Shown here in pieces: positions 18,975 to 54,544 of a stretch of 54,988 nucleotides of DNA (position 1 is its first letter; each line of letters begins with the position of its first letter). Both the position numbers and the translations under genes were made by a program. Origin of the DNA: a phage; the NCBI GenBank assembly GCA_021081985.1, contig GCA_021081985.1_3639.2; one strand, given 5' to 3'. The notes under the pieces are model-generated. The model made no database searches. It worked only from the letters and a program-made list of their open reading frames with translations, and was not told where the DNA came from.

Positions 18975-19772
18975 ATGGACTGGAATAAAGAGTTTACAAC
19001 CAAAGAGATAAGGTATCTCAAAACACGACTCTTTTTCAAAAAGAGGAATACCAAAGCGAGAGGTATAGAGTTCAATCTGACAGAAGATGACTGGTTTATG
19101 ATGGGCAACGGATTACTTGGGAAAGGTGTTTGTGATTACACAGGCCTACCTTTTTCTGCGACACCTAATGACCCCCTCTACCCGTCTGTTGAACGAATAG
19201 ATGACAAAAAAGGGTATGTTCGTGGAAACGTTTGTGTAGTCGGTAAGAGAGCAAACCAGTTAAAAGATTTTCTTGTAGACAAAAAGAAAGCTCTAACGAT
19301 TGTAGATCCACTCGACATGGATATCGTCCAAGGAATGATGTTAAATATGTCAAAGGATCACTTGGAAAAGTTAAAACTTAAATACATACCTACGGAAACA
19401 GATATGAAAGAGACAGAGAACGTAATTATTGATGAGCAGGTTGAAGAGATGAAAGAAAAATCTCTTCCTGACGATGTTGAAATTGCACTTGCATACGCAA
19501 ACTACTGTAAAACATTTGCGGAAGCAGGTATGAATGTTAGCGTTACGTATGCACAATTTAAGGCTAAATATTCAAGAAACACCTGTTCTCTAACAGGGGA
19601 GAAGTTAACAAAAACACCAAAACCTATTCTCATTATGGATTTAGATCTTGGGTTCGCAAAAGACAACTTTATTATTGTTTCTGAAAAGATGGAAACAGCA
19701 TTAACACAACTCATGATCAATACGAAAATGAGTTTACCAAAAATCACAGCTATGCTGAATAAGGTGGTTTAA
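18975..19772 (+). CDS. HNH/AP2-like putative homing endonuclease with a duplicated module
   Basis: 265 aa; two copies of a C-x2-TG ... ID ... G-Y/F ... N module (CDYTGLPF...ERIDDKKGYVRGNV and CSLTGEKL...MDLDLGFAKDNF). Residues are degenerate relative to canonical HNH. Confidence 0.4.
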   Translation: MDWNKEFTTKEIRYLKTRLFFKKRNTKARGIEFNLTEDDWFMMGNGLLGKGVCDYTGLPFSATPNDPLYPSVERIDDKKGYVRGNVCVVGKRANQLKDFLVDKKKALTIVDPLDMDIVQGMMLNMSKDHLEKLKLKYIPTETDMKETENVIIDEQVEEMKEKSLPDDVEIALAYANYCKTFAEAGMNVSVTYAQFKAKYSRNTCSLTGEKLTKTPKPILIMDLDLGFAKDNFIIVSEKMETALTQLMINTKMSLPKITAMLNKVV

Positions 19773-19960
19773 TGAAAGATTTTCTACCAAAACCGTGTCC
19801 ATTTTGTAAAAATGATGCACTTTTGCTTAAACAGAAACGCTCTGGGCAAACAATATTTCACTACATTTACTGCCAGAAATGTGGAACATCTGGGCCACAG
19901 GCTCTGAGTGAGCCTACTGCTGTAAGTTGGTGGAATGTCGGTAATAAAGAGGTAAAATAA
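19772..19960 (+). CDS. Lar-family restriction alleviation protein (zinc ribbon)
   Basis: 62 aa; PCPFCKND ... CQKCG zinc ribbon and C-terminal AVSWWN fit the Lar family pattern. Confidence 0.55.
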   Translation: MKDFLPKPCPFCKNDALLLKQKRSGQTIFHYIYCQKCGTSGPQALSEPTAVSWWNVGNKEVK

Positions 19961-28404: not shown

Positions 28405-28442
28405 TTGTCTTTTAGTTATGCCGTGGTAGAATACACGGCATA
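28405..28442 (+). promoter_or_regulatory. Promoter TTGTCT-16-TAGAAT with a 9-bp inverted repeat (TATGCCGTG / CACGGCATA) bracketing the -10
   Basis: Arms at 28417-28425 and 28434-28442; near-identical copy at 32649-32686. Confidence 0.5.
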
Positions 28443-31475: not shown

Positions 31476-31510
31476 TTGACGTTGATTTGTGCCACCTTAT
31501 AATAGGTGGC
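31476..31510 (+). promoter_or_regulatory. Promoter TTGACG-16-TATAAT with the -10 inside the inverted repeat GCCACCT/AGGTGGC
   Basis: TTGACG at 31476-31481, TATAAT at 31498-31503; palindrome arms at 31491-31497 and 31504-31510. Confidence 0.5.
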
Positions 31511-32648: not shown

Positions 32649-32686
32649 TTGACTTTTAGTTATGCCGTGATAGAATGCACGGCATA
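32649..32686 (+). promoter_or_regulatory. Promoter TTGACT-16-TAGAAT with the same 9-bp inverted repeat (TATGCCGTG / CACGGCATA) as at 28405-28442
   Basis: The two copies share about 40 nt including both palindrome arms. Confidence 0.5.
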
Positions 32687-33642: not shown

Positions 33643-33671
33643 TTGACACCCTCATAAAAACGCCTTATTAT
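33643..33671 (+). promoter_or_regulatory. Promoter TTGACA-17-TATTAT
   Basis: Followed by the 5' stem-loop GGCGGGGAGCGGTTCCCCGCC (33683-33703) and the gene at 33725. Confidence 0.45.
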
Positions 33672-33724
33672 CTATCTCATAAGGCGGGGAGCGGTTCCCC
33701 GCCACACTTAAGAGGTAAATAATC

Positions 33725-40416: not shown

Positions 40417-40496
40417 AATGTACCTTACAGTGTTGTCAAACTATGAGAGTATGATAATATACGGTACAACTATTTACAATAGTAGGAGACGATCTA

Positions 40497-40777
40497 TGAC
40501 TGTAAAAATCCCAAGAGGCGGTAAACCAGACAGAAATGAATGTGATAAGCGTGTAAGGGTAGGGAGAATGTGTCTGATTTATGGAATAACCTATCCACCA
40601 ATGGTGCGACTTAATGGTAAAATATGTAAGGTCATCGACATACCAAAAGATAACACAACACGCTTCTTGTGCAAGGTCAAAGGTGAAGAGAAGGTTTTTA
40701 ACATCCCACACAAAAACCTAACAGTTTTGGATCTTAATGACAACATTGTTATCTCCAAATACCGTTGTATAAACTAA
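40497..40777 (+). CDS. Hypothetical protein (plus-strand gene inside the minus block; start trimmed to MTVKIPRGG)
   Basis: Promoter-like TTGTCA ... TGATAATAT upstream, RBS TAGGAGACG, and a bidirectional terminator just downstream. Confidence 0.4.
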
Positions 40778-40782
40778 AATAA

Positions 40783-40810
40783 AAGCCCCACATGGGGCTT
40801 TTATTTTTAT
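40783..40810. terminator. Bidirectional rho-independent terminator between convergent genes
   Basis: AAGCCCC-ACAT-GGGGCTT flanked by an A-run upstream and a T-run downstream. Confidence 0.6.
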
Positions 40811-41547
40811 TCAAAATCATCAACACCGCTATCGGTAAGGTTTTCTCTGCTCGAAGGTTTTGTCGAAAGAACTTGCTCAAGCAGAGAGGAAAATTTCTGC
40901 AAATTACTTACAGAAGAAGCCCCTGCTGCCATGGCAAGCATATCCACTTCTTTTTCGGTAGGTTGCGTCCAGTCTAGAAACATCTCTTTCATGTACAACG
41001 TTGATGTCCCTATTGGTGTGGCGTGGTCAACCCTATCAGCATAGACCCAGAAAAGAACTTCTTTCTCTATACATACACACAAAGCAGCACCCAACGAGTA
41101 TCCTGCAACGAGGGATGGATATCTTGCAACGAGGATCTCGACATTCAGGTCATCCCAGTGAAATACAACACCCAAACACTTCATATCCACAATGTCTTCC
41201 ACTGCGGGTCTTAGCTCCTCATGGGAAGAAAAGGAGTCATAGTTGATATTCTTTATGAATTTAAGAACGTCTTGGCGGTTGTAGGCACAATCGTTATCAC
41301 CTTGCTTCCAGTAACCCCAAAATGAAGTCGATAAATTCAACCAAAAACTTGCAGTTGTCCCTAATGTCTCAGCCAGTTTTTCAGCCACATCCTCTGATAC
41401 CTCTTCCATGTTATAAAGGATGGTTCTCAACTTATTTACCGGTATACCAGATCTGTCAGCAAGATCATCCACACACCAACCTAATGGATCCAGATATTCG
41501 TGGATAATAACCTCCCCTGGTGACACTGGTGCTCTTTCTTTCTGCAT
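40807..41547 (-). CDS. HTH (XRE/HigA-like) DNA-binding protein with a C-terminal domain of unknown function
   Basis: N-terminus after the internal Met: PVSPGEVIIHEYLDPLGWCVDDLADRSGIPVNKLRTIL ... ASFWLNL resembles HigA-type HTH antitoxins; RBS AAAGGAGAA precedes that ATG. Confidence 0.5.
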   Translation of the reverse strand: MQKERAPVSPGEVIIHEYLDPLGWCVDDLADRSGIPVNKLRTILYNMEEVSEDVAEKLAETLGTTASFWLNLSTSFWGYWKQGDNDCAYNRQDVLKFIKNINYDSFSSHEELRPAVEDIVDMKCLGVVFHWDDLNVEILVARYPSLVAGYSLGAALCVCIEKEVLFWVYADRVDHATPIGTSTLYMKEMFLDWTQPTEKEVDMLAMAAGASSVSNLQKFSSLLEQVLSTKPSSRENLTDSGVDDFE

Positions 41548-41600
41548 TCTTTCTCCTTTCTCTCTACCAGAAAACCCTGCTTTGCAGGGTTTTGTTACTA

Positions 41601-41804
41601 TCAGCATTTAGGCGAGCATTTATCGCACGGGCATGAAATTCCGTGGAAACACAAACCTGTTCCGTCTTTCTTGACCCCTGTTCCACCACATTGGGGACAA
41701 CTATCGTGTAAGCATTTTGTTTTTGTTGTCTCCTCTTTATCTTTATTAAAGAAGTTTTTCATAATCATTTTCTGTTGTTCAATCGTAAACATTTGCGTCC
41801 CCAA
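41601..41804 (-). CDS. Small Cys-rich zinc-binding protein
   Basis: 67 aa with C-x2-C and C-x-C clusters (CPQCGGTG, CPCDKCSPKC). Confidence 0.35.
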   Translation of the reverse strand: MGTQMFTIEQQKMIMKNFFNKDKEETTKTKCLHDSCPQCGGTGVKKDGTGLCFHGISCPCDKCSPKC

Positions 41805-42316: not shown

Positions 42317-42565
42317 TTAAAGATTTTGATAAGAATAATTTATTACGCCGGACCAGTTTTTTTTTTCTTCATGCAACCCTCGCTTGTGCCTGTACATTGC
42401 TAAAGGCCATACAGAACTCACTATAAAGCATTTCCATGCCCAACCCCATGGAGTCTTTGGTGCATAAGCTCGTTCAAGCCATTTACTCTTTTCCATCTCT
42501 GCCGTATGTACAAACCATACGGCAATATACAGTGCAACTATAATGTAGATAAAGCCATTAATCAT
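42317..42565 (-). CDS. Small membrane protein
   Basis: 82 aa; hydrophobic N-terminus MINGFIYIIVALYIAVWFV. Confidence 0.3.
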   Translation of the reverse strand: MINGFIYIIVALYIAVWFVHTAEMEKSKWLERAYAPKTPWGWAWKCFIVSSVWPLAMYRHKRGLHEEKKNWSGVINYSYQNL

Positions 42566-43619
42566 TCATCTTATCCCAACACATTTGTTGTGCTGTCATC
42601 AAAACATCGGCAGCAAAGTTAAGATCTGTTGTCTTCGGTAAATGCGTGTTCTTGTACAGAGTGTTACGAATATAATCATCCTTCTCTTCTGCCCAAGCCA
42701 AGAGCTTCTCCAAAGACCATGCACCATTTCTGATTGCAAGAAGCTCCTGAGCATCAGGTCTTTTTACAAGAACTTTCCCTTCCGTCAGGATTTCTTCTGC
42801 TTGTCGCATCAACCTAACCAAGTGCATACCATGCTTTGAATCGAAGCCATACTTTTCTTCTAACTCATGACGTGCTGGGTTTCTGTTTTCAACCCATGTC
42901 CAGTAGTTCTTATGCTTTTCCTTTGCTTGTTTATGGTCATCTGCTAGATACTTAACGATTAAAATTGGTTTACGTTTCTTATCCTCGCCAGAGAACTGTT
43001 CGTATGGGACTTTACGAATAGAGCCGTCAGAGTTAAACAAGCCAGCATTGTCGTGTGTTCCGATCACGCCATAGATATTATCACCCATTGGTAAAAAGAC
43101 ACACAACTTGTTAAGGTCATCCAGCATTTTCTGGAAGTCTTTGTGTTTTGTAAGATTATCATCCATCCACGAGTGTGTCAAGCGCATGAACTCTTTTTGT
43201 GTTGGTTGCTCTTTAGGCTGCGGGTTATTAATCCATTTATTATGGCCTTTGATACGCTTCAGTTGCGCCATCGCGTACCCAGAAAATGTAAAAGCAACTT
43301 TGCTGGATAGGAGTTTTGGCGCTTGCTCGCGTAGGTACTCGTAAACATCTGAAGTTTGCAGAATGTCACCTCTATCAACAAACATAAGCTCGATGATGTT
43401 TGGGTTCATATCAACGAACAACTTCATGTAGTTTGTTAGCTCATACAGCTTACCATCCTCTTCATCAATAAGAGTCATTTCTCTGTCAACGAAAAATGGG
43501 GTAAGAATGCTTTTAGGCTCTGCACAATAAATTCCGCGAATATCCACATCGGATGTTGGTAAGTTAGTTCCATAGGCAATACTACCGGAGTAACAACGCA
43601 TTAGTTCTAGTTTCTTCAT
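42558..43619 (-). CDS. Pol-beta superfamily nucleotidyltransferase
   Basis: 353 aa; N-terminal G-S-x4-G-T-x4-S-D-V-D-I (GSIAYGTNLPTSDVDI), the minimal NTase signature shared by OAS/CD-NTase-like and RNA-modifying NTases. Confidence 0.55.
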   Translation of the reverse strand: MKKLELMRCYSGSIAYGTNLPTSDVDIRGIYCAEPKSILTPFFVDREMTLIDEEDGKLYELTNYMKLFVDMNPNIIELMFVDRGDILQTSDVYEYLREQAPKLLSSKVAFTFSGYAMAQLKRIKGHNKWINNPQPKEQPTQKEFMRLTHSWMDDNLTKHKDFQKMLDDLNKLCVFLPMGDNIYGVIGTHDNAGLFNSDGSIRKVPYEQFSGEDKKRKPILIVKYLADDHKQAKEKHKNYWTWVENRNPARHELEEKYGFDSKHGMHLVRLMRQAEEILTEGKVLVKRPDAQELLAIRNGAWSLEKLLAWAEEKDDYIRNTLYKNTHLPKTTDLNFAADVLMTAQQMCWDKMND

Positions 43620-45448: not shown

Positions 45449-46693
45449 TTAGAATAACATATCCCTGCTGATTGCTTTACGAATAGCATCAATACGGGCT
45501 ACTCGCACAGCTTCACCAATCTCTTTACCATTCTTACCCTTTTCCAGAAGGGGTTTTGTTATAGCTTTAGAATCAACTTTTGTCATAGCGTCGTAGGCTT
45601 CCAGCAAAATATGACCTTGAAGATAAGGCTTATGCCTAAAATCACCACCTCTTCCTTTAGCATCACAATAACACGCATCTGCAAGTGTGTAAACCTTCAT
45701 TTTCTGATCCGCTTGTCCAGCAGCTTCAAATATTTTCATGATGCTTTTTGGTTTCAAACCGTTGTTACCATCTCTGGGAGAGATGGCGTGCACTTTTGTG
45801 TGATTTTCTGCAACATATTTTGCCGTGTCACGATAGATATTATAAATCTTCAACCTTTCACACAAGGATTGGATAACATCTACACCAGCTTTCTCATGAC
45901 CATGAAGATTACCATTGTCCTTGTAAGTTATAGCTTTGCCAAAATCATGGCACAGCACAGCAAACTTGGTCAGTGGATCAGCTTCTAATTCATCAGCAAC
46001 CCTTAACGCTAGAATTGTATGGGTGTAAGCATCCCCTTCTGGGTGATGTTCTTTAGGTTGTTGCACACCACGTAGGGCTTCCAGTTCAGGAAGTTCGCCA
46101 ATACGTCCCATATTGACAGCAAAAGATCTGAAATAACTACTCTTTAAGGCTTTCAACATTTCCTTCCATTTACGCTCGGCGCTTATTTCTGCCAAAGAGT
46201 GTCGGTTGTCATAAGCCAGTTTAAAAGTTTCTGGATGGATATGCCATTCTTCCCCAAGCTGGGCTTTAAATCTAAACAGGCGTAGAATACGTAATGGATC
46301 TTCAATAAACGCCTCTGATGTATGACGTAATGTTTTAAGTCCTAAGTCAACCTGACCGCCAAAAGGATCAATAATCTCACCACTATCAACATCCATCGCC
46401 ATGGAGTTGATGGTAAGATCTCTACGTGCCAAATCCTCTTCCAGTGTTACATCTGGACTAAAGCATACCTCAAATCCTTTATGGCCTTCGCCTGTTTTTC
46501 TTTCTGTGCGTGCAAGAGCGTACTCTTCTCTTGTTTCTGGGTGAAGATAAACTGGAAAAGATGCGCCAACTTGTGTGAACCCTCTTTTCAGCATCTCTTC
46601 ATGCGTAGCACCAACAACCACATAATCACGGTCTGATATTTCACGACCTAACAATTTATCTCTTACTGCGCCACCTACCAAGTATACCTTCAT
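45449..46693 (-). CDS. cca: CCA-adding enzyme (tRNA nucleotidyltransferase) with C-terminal HD domain
   Basis: MKVYLVGGAVRDKLLG, RDYVVVG, EEYALARTERK, RRDLTINS, GEIIDPFGG and EDPLRILRLFRF closely parallel the E. coli Cca head domain (recalled); C-terminal HDFGKA ... HGHEKAG gives the HD motif. Confidence 0.8.
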   Translation of the reverse strand: MKVYLVGGAVRDKLLGREISDRDYVVVGATHEEMLKRGFTQVGASFPVYLHPETREEYALARTERKTGEGHKGFEVCFSPDVTLEEDLARRDLTINSMAMDVDSGEIIDPFGGQVDLGLKTLRHTSEAFIEDPLRILRLFRFKAQLGEEWHIHPETFKLAYDNRHSLAEISAERKWKEMLKALKSSYFRSFAVNMGRIGELPELEALRGVQQPKEHHPEGDAYTHTILALRVADELEADPLTKFAVLCHDFGKAITYKDNGNLHGHEKAGVDVIQSLCERLKIYNIYRDTAKYVAENHTKVHAISPRDGNNGLKPKSIMKIFEAAGQADQKMKVYTLADACYCDAKGRGGDFRHKPYLQGHILLEAYDAMTKVDSKAITKPLLEKGKNGKEIGEAVRVARIDAIRKAISRDMLF

Positions 46694-47016
46694 TTCTTCG
46701 CCCACGTATTCATATAATTAACAATATCTTTTACGGTTCTCTTTCCGTCCAGTGGATAAACCATGTCATCGCTCATCCCACCGTGTTTTAGCATTGCTAC
46801 CAGTCTAGTATATACCTCTTTTGGTCTTTTGCAAGTTCTTTTCTTCCATTTATGACCGTCTGGGGAGTACTCCTTATCTTCAAGAGAGATATGAAGGATG
46901 TCTCCTATAAACTCTTTTGCCTGTGTGCTGTAAAGCGGACGGTGGAATATATAGAATTTCATTGCTTGCTCCTTTATTGTAATAACAATATCAGTGCAAG
47001 CTACATGTGTCAACAC
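46690..47016 (-). CDS. Hypothetical protein
   Basis: 108-aa ORF. Confidence 0.35.
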   Translation of the reverse strand: MLTHVACTDIVITIKEQAMKFYIFHRPLYSTQAKEFIGDILHISLEDKEYSPDGHKWKKRTCKRPKEVYTRLVAMLKHGGMSDDMVYPLDGKRTVKDIVNYMNTWAKK

Positions 47017-54019: not shown

Positions 54020-54238
54020 CGCACCATTACGTGCTGCTGCATGTCACCATGCAGATCAGACCATATCTTCATGCTTAAAGCATGTCTGCCGTTTGGGGTG
54101 TCATCAGCTTACACTCTACATCCTTACATTCATCAGGATTGGTCGTTAGGCATTTACGGTTGATACCGATTTAGCACGGGATTCCCTCCATAGAGGATTC
54201 CCCCGTTTAGGCAGATTTTACATGAGCAGTTATAGTTT
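54020..54238 (-). other. Group I intron (ORF-less, about 220 nt) within nrdD; boundaries approximate
   Basis: Minus strand CUAAACGGGGGAAUCCUCUAUGGAGGGAAUCCCGUGCUAAAUCGG closely resembles the T4 td intron core as recalled; R-like AACGACCA and S-like GAUAUGGUC show a compensatory P7 change (GACCA/UGGUC); GNRA hairpin CUGCAUG-GUGA-CAUGCAG near the 3' end; P1 candidate exon CAUGGGU with guide GCUCAUG. Confidence 0.7.
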
Positions 54239-54544
54239 ACCCATGCTTGTAACACGCCCGTCTGAAGAACCTGTTACCTTTTTATTCAACGGTACAGATA
54301 TGAAATCTGGATAAATCCTTTCAACACAACACTCCATGGCTAATTGCTTTAAGTCGTAGTTTGGATCGCCAGGCTTCATGTTTACACCATCTTCCAAGAA
54401 GAAGATAACTTTTGGAAAAACAGGTGTGACTTTATCTTTGCCAAGTCCGTTTTTGTGAACAAGAAAATAATTCTTTGTAATCATTCTCCCAAAATAGGAA
54501 GTATCAAGCCCAAGGCTCAAGGTGATAAATGGGCATTGCATTGC
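54239..54544 (-). CDS. nrdD: NrdD internal exon; boundaries approximate
   Basis: ORF 54230..54541 (MQCPFITLSLGLDTS ... RVTSMG); the in-frame stop lies just inside the following intron. Confidence 0.55.

Follow-up and report, generated by a model that had tools for sequence, protein, structure and literature searches.

Antitoxins of the HigA/VapI/GraA group (e.g., YbaQ [2eby], VapI [3trb], GraA [6f8s], and PaHigA [7csv]) are single-domain proteins of ~95–110 amino acids (aa) with a five-helix helix-turn-helix (HTH) fold, and those of the HigA/GraA type neutralise their toxin through the folded HTH domain itself (PMC6393540). In the PaHigA–operator structure, conserved contacts are made by S26, R32, and T40, and each of the substitutions T40A, D43A, and R49A abolishes binding (PMC6987408). 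Proteins in which an HTH accompanies a second folded domain are also described. In two-domain antitoxins (HicB, MqsA, and the HigA of E. coli K-12) and in HTH-plus-COG2856/ImmA pairs, this second domain either has metallopeptidase character or serves to bind the cognate toxin, whose gene is adjacent. In the Aca–Acr fusions of anti-CRISPR (Acr) proteins (AcrIIA1, AcrIIA13–15, AcrIF24), a small N-terminal XRE-type HTH precedes a lineage-specific effector domain that also occurs HTH-free. Here we analyse a minus-strand gene, at positions 40807–41547 of a 54,988-nt stretch of phage DNA (contig GCA_021081985.1_3639.2, assembly GCA_021081985.1; hereafter "the window"), which encodes a HigA-type HTH followed by a domain related to gp172, a free-standing protein of phage PVP-SE1.

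As judged from its sequence, the gene product is a chimeric accessory protein limited to Av-05-like phages, in which a HigA/VapI HTH is joined in frame before a gp172-type domain (Table 1). It resembles the HigA/VapI/GraA antitoxins in its five-helix HTH fold and in sequence family over residues 5–76, and it resembles the PVP-SE1 gp172 family over the whole of the free-standing protein, in core motif, and in genomic slot. Unlike the antitoxins, it (i) is 246 aa long, with a foreign ~155-aa domain after α5, (ii) has no HigB-type toxin gene within the 55-kb window and no identified promoter or operator of its own, and (iii) has a far more acidic core, in which the Arg49 and Arg32 of PaHigA are replaced by Glu48 and Asp31. 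Compared to the gp172 family, the Av-05-type copy (i) adds the N-terminal HigA module, (ii) is markedly acidic, at −12 compared with ~−2.4 to +1.6 in full-length homologues, (iii) has lost 4 and 6 residues from its C-terminal helical region and terminates in an acidic tail (...VDDFE), and (iv) is no longer translationally coupled to the gp171 HNH/endonuclease-VII-like gene, which is absent. The explanation we prefer, with a probability of about 0.4, is that an accessory effector domain recruited the HigA module for dimerisation, targeting, or regulation.

The N-terminal module is matched by the NCBIfam equivalog TIGR02607 ("antidote_HigA") over residues 5–74/76 (profile positions 2–71 of 81) with 57.4 bits (E = 9.8e-16), against a curated cutoff of 47.7 bits. 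Residues 2–81 match solved HigA-type proteins, YbaQ first (3.5e-11), followed by VapI and GraA; Pfam HTH_3 and HTH_26 matches fall below threshold. The HigA signature motifs PGE(V/I), LA..xG(I/V), A.(K/R)L, and T..FWLNL are all retained. The first-pass annotation of this DNA, made from the letters alone, had assigned the N-terminus to the HigA/XRE antitoxin-type HTH proteins, and the profile search upholds that call, as do the PDB homologues. Labels already attached to the Av-05 orthologue are "plasmid antitoxin with HTH domain" (RefSeq) and "putative pirin" (GenBank). In sequence comparisons, identity to any plasmid or solved HigA was ≤40%, and when the HTH by itself was the query of a word-indexed protein search, nothing but pieces of this very gene came back. 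The idea that the module was recently acquired from a toxin–antitoxin system of the host was rejected given this low identity to plasmid HigAs and the lack of any DNA match in 5,426 complete E. coli genomes.

The ~166 residues after the HTH comprise a 12-aa linker and a ~154-aa domain, for which the same annotation had found no recognisable motif. This description stands insofar as neither Pfam, NCBIfam, nor the PDB offers a sequence match to the domain, but relatives do exist, namely PVP-SE1 gp172 and the other members of PHROG 19128 (E = 9.8e-10). A tblastn search matched a 164-aa protein of Salmonella phage SPLA5a, with which pairwise BLASTP gave 34% identity over 93 aa (E = 1e-12). The homologues are free-standing 160–172-aa proteins of Seunavirus phages (PVP-SE1 gp172, SSE121, 4MG, GAP31, SPLA5a, FENT2, and others), and they align end to end with residues 93–246 at 23–31% identity, with 12–22 invariant columns depending on the sequence set and 12–16 in alignments A3 and A5. 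Conserved residues are W167, Y169, D171, V173, Y185, M189-F190, D192, P196-T197, E200, M203-L204, M206, and G209, which yield the common core motif W.Y.D.V...Y..(D/E)MF.D...PT.EE..ML.M..G; the acidic tail (...TDSGVDDFE) is lineage specific.

The distribution of the domain is narrow. A profile search of 5.8 billion proteins recovered 25 clusters, none of which came from outside the Seunavirus-like and Av-05-like phages, with the fused proteins scoring 186–191 bits. Among the full-length members of these clusters only two architectures occur, free-standing (160–172 aa) or HTH-fused (243–246 aa), and the fusion is confined to Av-05-like phages. With the fused protein as tblastn query, matches at E ≤ 1e-5 occurred in 13 phage records. 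A phmmer search of 1.84 billion representatives returned only the protein's own cluster plus two spurious repetitive proteins (P0005 and P0006), and when all viral contigs were scanned, the gp172-type motif turned up only in Av-05, PVP-SE1, and 4MG.

Neither profile nor structure comparison revealed RelE, ParE, or HigB similarity in the C-terminal domain, i.e., there is no fused toxin–antitoxin, and with no Pfam Peptidase_M78 match and no HExxH in the sequence, an ImmA/IrrE-type metallopeptidase domain is not present. The structure prediction that had been proposed for this region produced an AF2 model with pLDDT ~66–82 across the gp172-type domain and low values over residues 62–87, but fold searches with the domain gave no convincing match, the hit in BFVD being the SSE121 homologue alone. 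We took a PADLOC match to Cas8b (E = 0.003, 14.7 bits) to be noise.

Comparison of gene order indicates how the two parts may have come together. In Seunavirus, the order is a nucleotidyltransferase, small genes, gp169 (zinc-ribbon-like), gp170, gp171, gp172, a bidirectional terminator, and the convergent gp173 (phrog_13562). In the window, it is an RlaP-type nucleotidyltransferase, small genes, a gp169 homologue, a 53-nt spacer with a hairpin, the fused gene, a bidirectional terminator, and a convergent gp173 homologue. The fused gene and free-standing gp172 therefore share a slot, as the last gene of a nucleotide-metabolism/nucleotidyltransferase unit that faces the phrog_13562 gene. No gp170 or gp171 was found in the window, where the hairpin, the Shine-Dalgarno sequence, and the HTH-coding segment occupy their place. 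The fused protein begins with MQKE, resembling the MQ[KDE]E[LM] start of the Seunavirus proteins, and after the HTH and linker it continues with VLKFIKN, comparable to IRLFVKD. The HTH-coding segment thus appears to have been inserted in frame directly behind the ancestral start, for which the short stretch of nucleotide evidence is only suggestive. Derivation of the HTH by fusion with the upstream gp171 was rejected, there being no similarity between the two. Seunavirus gp171 (L002:3639–4034 and L010:17794–18189) is itself a 131-aa HNH/endonuclease-VII-like protein whose gene overlaps the gp172-type gene by 16 nt, an arrangement that suggests translational coupling in those phages. Mydovirus (KpS8) and Henunavirus (Hena1), which keep gp171 and/or gp173, have no gp172-type gene at this spot; the gene is therefore dispensable.

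The coding status of the gene bears on whether the fusion does anything at all. The open reading frame (ORF) spans 40807–41607 on the minus strand, and its functional start is taken as the ATG at 41547 because AGGAG lies 5 nt upstream (GGGAG in Av-05) and because homologues in Av-05, TH18, and metagenomes are called from the identical methionine. A longer, 266-aa frame from the ATG at 41607, with 20 additional codons, was rejected: it would overlap the stop of the preceding gene, cross the hairpin, and lack a Shine-Dalgarno sequence. PHROG 1381 covers the full length of the protein (E = 1e-86), which is 93–95% identical in phages Av-05, TH18, 18-1-2, 19-1-2, and 24-2-1; over 2.6 kb around the gene, the DNA is 93–94% identical to the same five, and the window represents part of the genome of an Av-05-like phage (Vequintavirinae, Avunavirus). 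Relative to Av-05 and TH18, the ratio of nonsynonymous to synonymous substitution rates (dN/dS) is 0.05–0.09 for residues 1–80 and 0.19–0.5 for residues 81–246, from small counts; by these estimates both halves are clearly coding and constrained, with the HTH under stronger purifying selection.

That the gene is a chance ORF or a decaying fusion devoid of function is accordingly a very remote prospect, set against a strong Shine-Dalgarno sequence, preservation of the entire protein in six phage genomes and in several metagenomic clusters, and dN/dS well below 1 in both domains. What speaks for it is the frameshift in one metagenomic variant, P0004, which truncates the protein after residue 177. 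In this homologue, from a 13-kb contig, the reading runs through ...DHAT into SGFMALLKPQNKP, and the truncation stems from either misassembly or a genuine loss of the C-terminal helices.

How far the HTH still behaves as a HigA may be gauged from its DNA-contacting positions. In ungapped alignments, residue n of the HTH protein corresponds to residue n+1 of PaHigA or GraA, so that PaHigA S26, R32, T40, D43, and R49 become C25, D31, K39, T42, and E48. The position of PaHigA Arg49, a DNA-backbone contact after the recognition helix, is occupied by Glu48, with Glu49 following. This position is Arg in YbaQ, VapI, 3cec, and PaHigA, and GraA has its Arg one residue earlier. The stretch with this Glu pair, NMEEVS, is invariant in all Av-05-type homologues (Av-05, TH18, and P0001–P0004). 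The net charge of the HTH core over the aligned region is −7.1, versus −0.3 to −2.1 in four solved homologues, and the whole protein has an isoelectric point of 4.46 and a net charge of −20. Because of the Glu at the Arg49 equivalent and the hyper-acidic HTH, canonical HigA-style DNA binding is doubtful, and any DNA binding by this module would probably differ from that at canonical HigA operators.

These residues also bear on the possibility that the protein is a classical one-component transcription factor, with the HTH binding a specific operator in phage or host DNA and the C-terminal domain doing no more than oligomerising or sensing a signal, so as to repress or time a promoter set in the early-to-middle switch. 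The recognition helix, in which K39 and R41 are gains, presents the polar or basic residues N38, K39, R41, T42, and Y45, while K57 replaces the conserved Arg58. The HTH is very strongly conserved, and the gene ends a middle-type operon in which its expression is probably low, all of which would suit a regulator. The same module is nonetheless acidic, with Glu replacing Arg49, the search for an operator-like palindrome that recurs gave none, and the C-terminal domain occurs free-standing in sister phages, where a sensor deprived of its output module would make little sense. On balance, we regard this role as unlikely, though still deserving of consideration.

A more specific version of the regulator idea, raised by the first-pass annotation, is that the protein binds the palindromic promoters at 28405–28442, 31476–31510, and 32649–32686. 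These sites, and another at 33643–33690, are promoter-like elements of a strong sigma-70 type in which a dyad brackets the −10 box (consensus TATGCCnnn-TAGAAT-nnnGGCATA, with other copies at L019:3673–3717 and L027:61–105). Repression of these early promoters would fit with the position of the dyads around the −10 box, with their lack in 50 kb of PVP-SE1, which has no HTH, and with the production of the gene after the early genes. The promoter type, TTGACTTTT.GTTATGCC...TA.AAT...GGCATAGA, is however not confined to this phage. A 153-kb IMG/VR contig has a copy, reading TTGACTTATCGTTATGCCCTGTTAGAATACAGGGCATAGA, to which copies in Klebsiella phages KP13-16, 05F01, and FBKp34 are 91–96% identical; in FBKp34, a member of Stephanstirmvirinae, the annotation marks the element as a promoter. 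The element occurs in Av-05 as well. None of these three named Klebsiella phages is among the 13 records with a homologue of the fused protein at the E ≤ 1e-5 level, nor did the motif scan of viral contigs described above recover any of them.

The arms of the dyads tell in the same direction. Inner arm bases vary between copies (CGTG/CACG, ACCT/AGGT, and CCTG/CAGG) and change on both arms between the window phage and Av-05, while the outer TGCC/GGCA and the downstream ATAG are fixed; such covariation is expected of a structural constraint rather than of a single sequence-specific operator. The outer TGCC and GGCA are moreover 18 bp apart, centre to centre, unlike the recognition helices of the GraA dimer, which are ~34 Å apart, i.e., one helical turn (PMC6393540). 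Repression of the palindromic promoters is thereby disfavoured and seems to us highly improbable. The promoters are shared by phages well beyond the Av-05-like ones and call for an explanation other than the fused protein, which removes a wrong lead.

An alternative directed at the host is that the protein acts as a decoy antitoxin, its HigA fold having lost operator binding and instead neutralising infection-triggered host mRNA interferases of the HigB/RelE family, with the C-terminal domain stabilising the HigA-fold module or adding a second target. Toxin genes were sought in the window, which represents 55 kb of a ~120–134-kb genome. The nine neighbouring products have no toxin-family match. 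In a Pfam scan of 107 non-overlapping window ORFs, no RelE, HigB, ParE, or Gp49 was present among the 25 families listed of the 39 matched, and a scan of 78 small ORFs (E ≤ 0.01), for which all 13 matched families were listed, had none either. The lack of an adjacent HigB-like toxin, already remarked upon in the first reading, hence extends to the entire window, and the HTH protein is an orphan within 55 kb rather than half of a toxin–antitoxin pair.

Such an orphan HigA-family module would favour a decoy, as would the capacity of HigA/GraA-type antitoxins, introduced above, to neutralise through the folded HTH (PMC6393540). Strong purifying selection coupled with changed charges at the DNA-contact positions (net −7 in the HTH core, −20 in the whole protein) and the presence of CCA-adding tRNA and RlaP-type nucleotidyltransferases in the same transcription unit would also be in keeping with it. 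Toxin–antitoxin pairs are, on the other hand, usually specific, and here identity to any plasmid or solved HigA does not exceed 40%, with no related DNA in the E. coli genomes searched; the fusion to a gp172-type domain is left unexplained, and a literature search found no experimental precedent for a phage HigA decoy. We therefore consider a decoy distinctly unlikely. A similarly low likelihood attaches to a broader formulation, whereby a hyper-acidic HigA mimic plus an effector domain would form a counter-defence protein that sequesters HigB/RelE-type toxins or another host factor that recognises the HigA fold.

Under our preferred explanation, an effector domain with a recruited HigA module, the gp172-type domain would carry the ancestral, dispensable activity; it probably holds the primary activity because it stands alone in sister phages. 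The HigA part would have been acquired for dimerisation and for binding to DNA or to a partner protein, and would in this way tether or regulate the gp172-type domain, for which a host-directed role is a guess. By analogy, the fusion resembles the phage HTH–effector fusions AcrIIA1, AcrIIA15, and AcrIF24, and AcrIIA15 and AcrIF24 surfaced among weak structural and literature hits. The likeness to the Aca–Acr fusions is nonetheless one of architecture only: the C-terminal domain is not related to any Acr in sequence, nor significantly in fold, no promoter with an operator was found ahead of the fused gene, and PADLOC and fold searches gave nothing meaningful. With two-domain antitoxins and HTH-plus-ImmA pairs, the protein shares an HTH plus a second folded domain, but it lacks the toxin gene, a Pfam match to those second domains, and the HExxH motif.

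Several points weigh against this explanation. DNA binding by the recruited module is uncertain given the charge of −7 in its core and the Glu48–Glu49 pair; no operator was identified, and the sole palindrome adjoining the gene looks like a terminator. The gp172 family consists of hypothetical proteins, with no member having an assigned function, and the anti-defence or host-directed flavour is drawn solely from accessory status and position at the end of the operon.

Expression of the gene is framed by two structured elements. The hairpin in the 53-nt gap upstream (RNA fold −15 kcal/mol, z −3.3) has an A-tract/GC-stem/T-tract build and resembles a weak intrinsic terminator or attenuator; in Av-05 the stem is identical, with a TTT loop instead of AAA. 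No sigma-70-like promoter was found between the hairpin and the gene or just upstream, and transcripts of the gene probably arise from read-through of the hairpin, making its expression lower than that of the genes before it. The hairpin core CCTGC-N3-GCAGG was considered as a recurring operator and rejected: two occurrences in the window against 0.65 expected, the second inside an ORF, is at chance level. Downstream, the bidirectional terminator (RNA folds of −21 and −19 kcal/mol on the two strands, z ~−6) ends both the transcription unit of the fused gene and the convergent one, and equivalents are annotated in PVP-SE1.

Around the gene, the convergent gp173 homologue is a 93-aa PHROG 13562 protein with 39% identity to PVP-SE1 gp173. 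The PHROG 13562 gene is kept across Avunavirus, Seunavirus, Mydovirus, Henunavirus, and Proteus/Raoultella phages (68 records), in every case at the switch between two transcription units. A functional pairing of the fused gene with it was rejected, as it is far more widespread than the fused gene and, in Mydovirus and Henunavirus, faces other genes where no gp172-type gene is present. On the other side, the gp169 homologue is a conserved small zinc-binding protein of 67 aa (PHROG 17149, 46% identical to PVP-SE1 gp169) with four CxxC-type pairs (CPQCGGTG...CPCDKCSPKC). The transcription unit of the fused gene also includes two nucleotidyltransferases, one RlaP-type ("RNA repair pathway") and the other acting on tRNA and of the CCA-adding/poly(A)-polymerase type. 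With an RNA ligase match elsewhere in the window, the two nucleotidyltransferases suggest RNA-repair functions in this phage.

Two further features of the window are distant from the gene. ORFs matching NrdD flank a group I catalytic intron (Rfam RF00028, 80.9 bits, E = 5e-19), and nrdD (anaerobic ribonucleotide reductase) appears split into several ORFs at ~52.3–54.5 kb. A 62-aa zinc-ribbon ORF (KPCPFC...CQKCG) is the likely source of the Lar hit (PF14354, E = 4e-9), the single restriction-alleviation match in the whole-window Pfam scan, which makes this ORF a candidate anti-restriction gene.

Table 1. Positions of the fused gene, its parts, its flanking signals, and other features in the 54,988-nt window.
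Feature	Position	Strand	Remarks
Whole gene, HigA-type HTH plus gp172-type domain	40807–41547	minus	246 codons; stop 40807–40809
Shine-Dalgarno sequence AGGAG	41553–41557	minus	5 nt 5' of ATG at 41547; sequence read
Five-helix HigA/VapI-family HTH module, aa 1–80	41308–41547	minus	helix-turn-helix ~aa 24–45; α4–α5 to ~aa 77
Linker KQGDNDCAYNRQ, aa 81–92	41272–41307	minus	no counterpart in free-standing homologues (alignments A1, A3)
gp172-type (PHROG 19128) α/β domain, aa 93–246	40810–41271	minus	PHROG, BLASTP, full-length alignment, profile search
Perfect 10-bp-arm hairpin AAAACCCTGC-AAA-GCAGGGTTTT	41571–41593	minus	inverted repeat I3; 53-nt gap between gp169-like gene and fused gene
Bidirectional intrinsic terminator	40776–40807		inverted repeat I1; 15-nt arms, A-tract/T-tract on both sides
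Convergent gp173 homologue	40496–40777	plus	
gp169 homologue	41601–41804	minus	
RlaP-type nucleotidyltransferase	42558–43619	minus	
CCA-adding/poly(A)-polymerase-type tRNA nucleotidyltransferase	45449–46705	minus	
Group I catalytic intron	54037–54277	minus	
Zinc-ribbon ORF	19772–19960	plus	

Phage genomes often carry orphan "antitoxin-like" HTH genes, whose annotation as a rule goes no further than a name. For this one, our analysis newly provides (i) recognition of its fusion with the gp172 family, (ii) evidence against its being a component of a toxin–antitoxin pair, and (iii) a departure of its HTH from HigA at an operator-binding residue. Should the decoy alternative prove true, a protein-antitoxin mimic would join the known phage counter-measures against toxin–antitoxin defence, as the first example of a lytic phage re-using the HigA fold against host abortive-infection toxins; if not, the protein would be one more lineage-specific regulator. 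The fused and free-standing forms constitute a natural pair for asking what the HigA fold adds, be it DNA targeting, dimerisation, or toxin capture.

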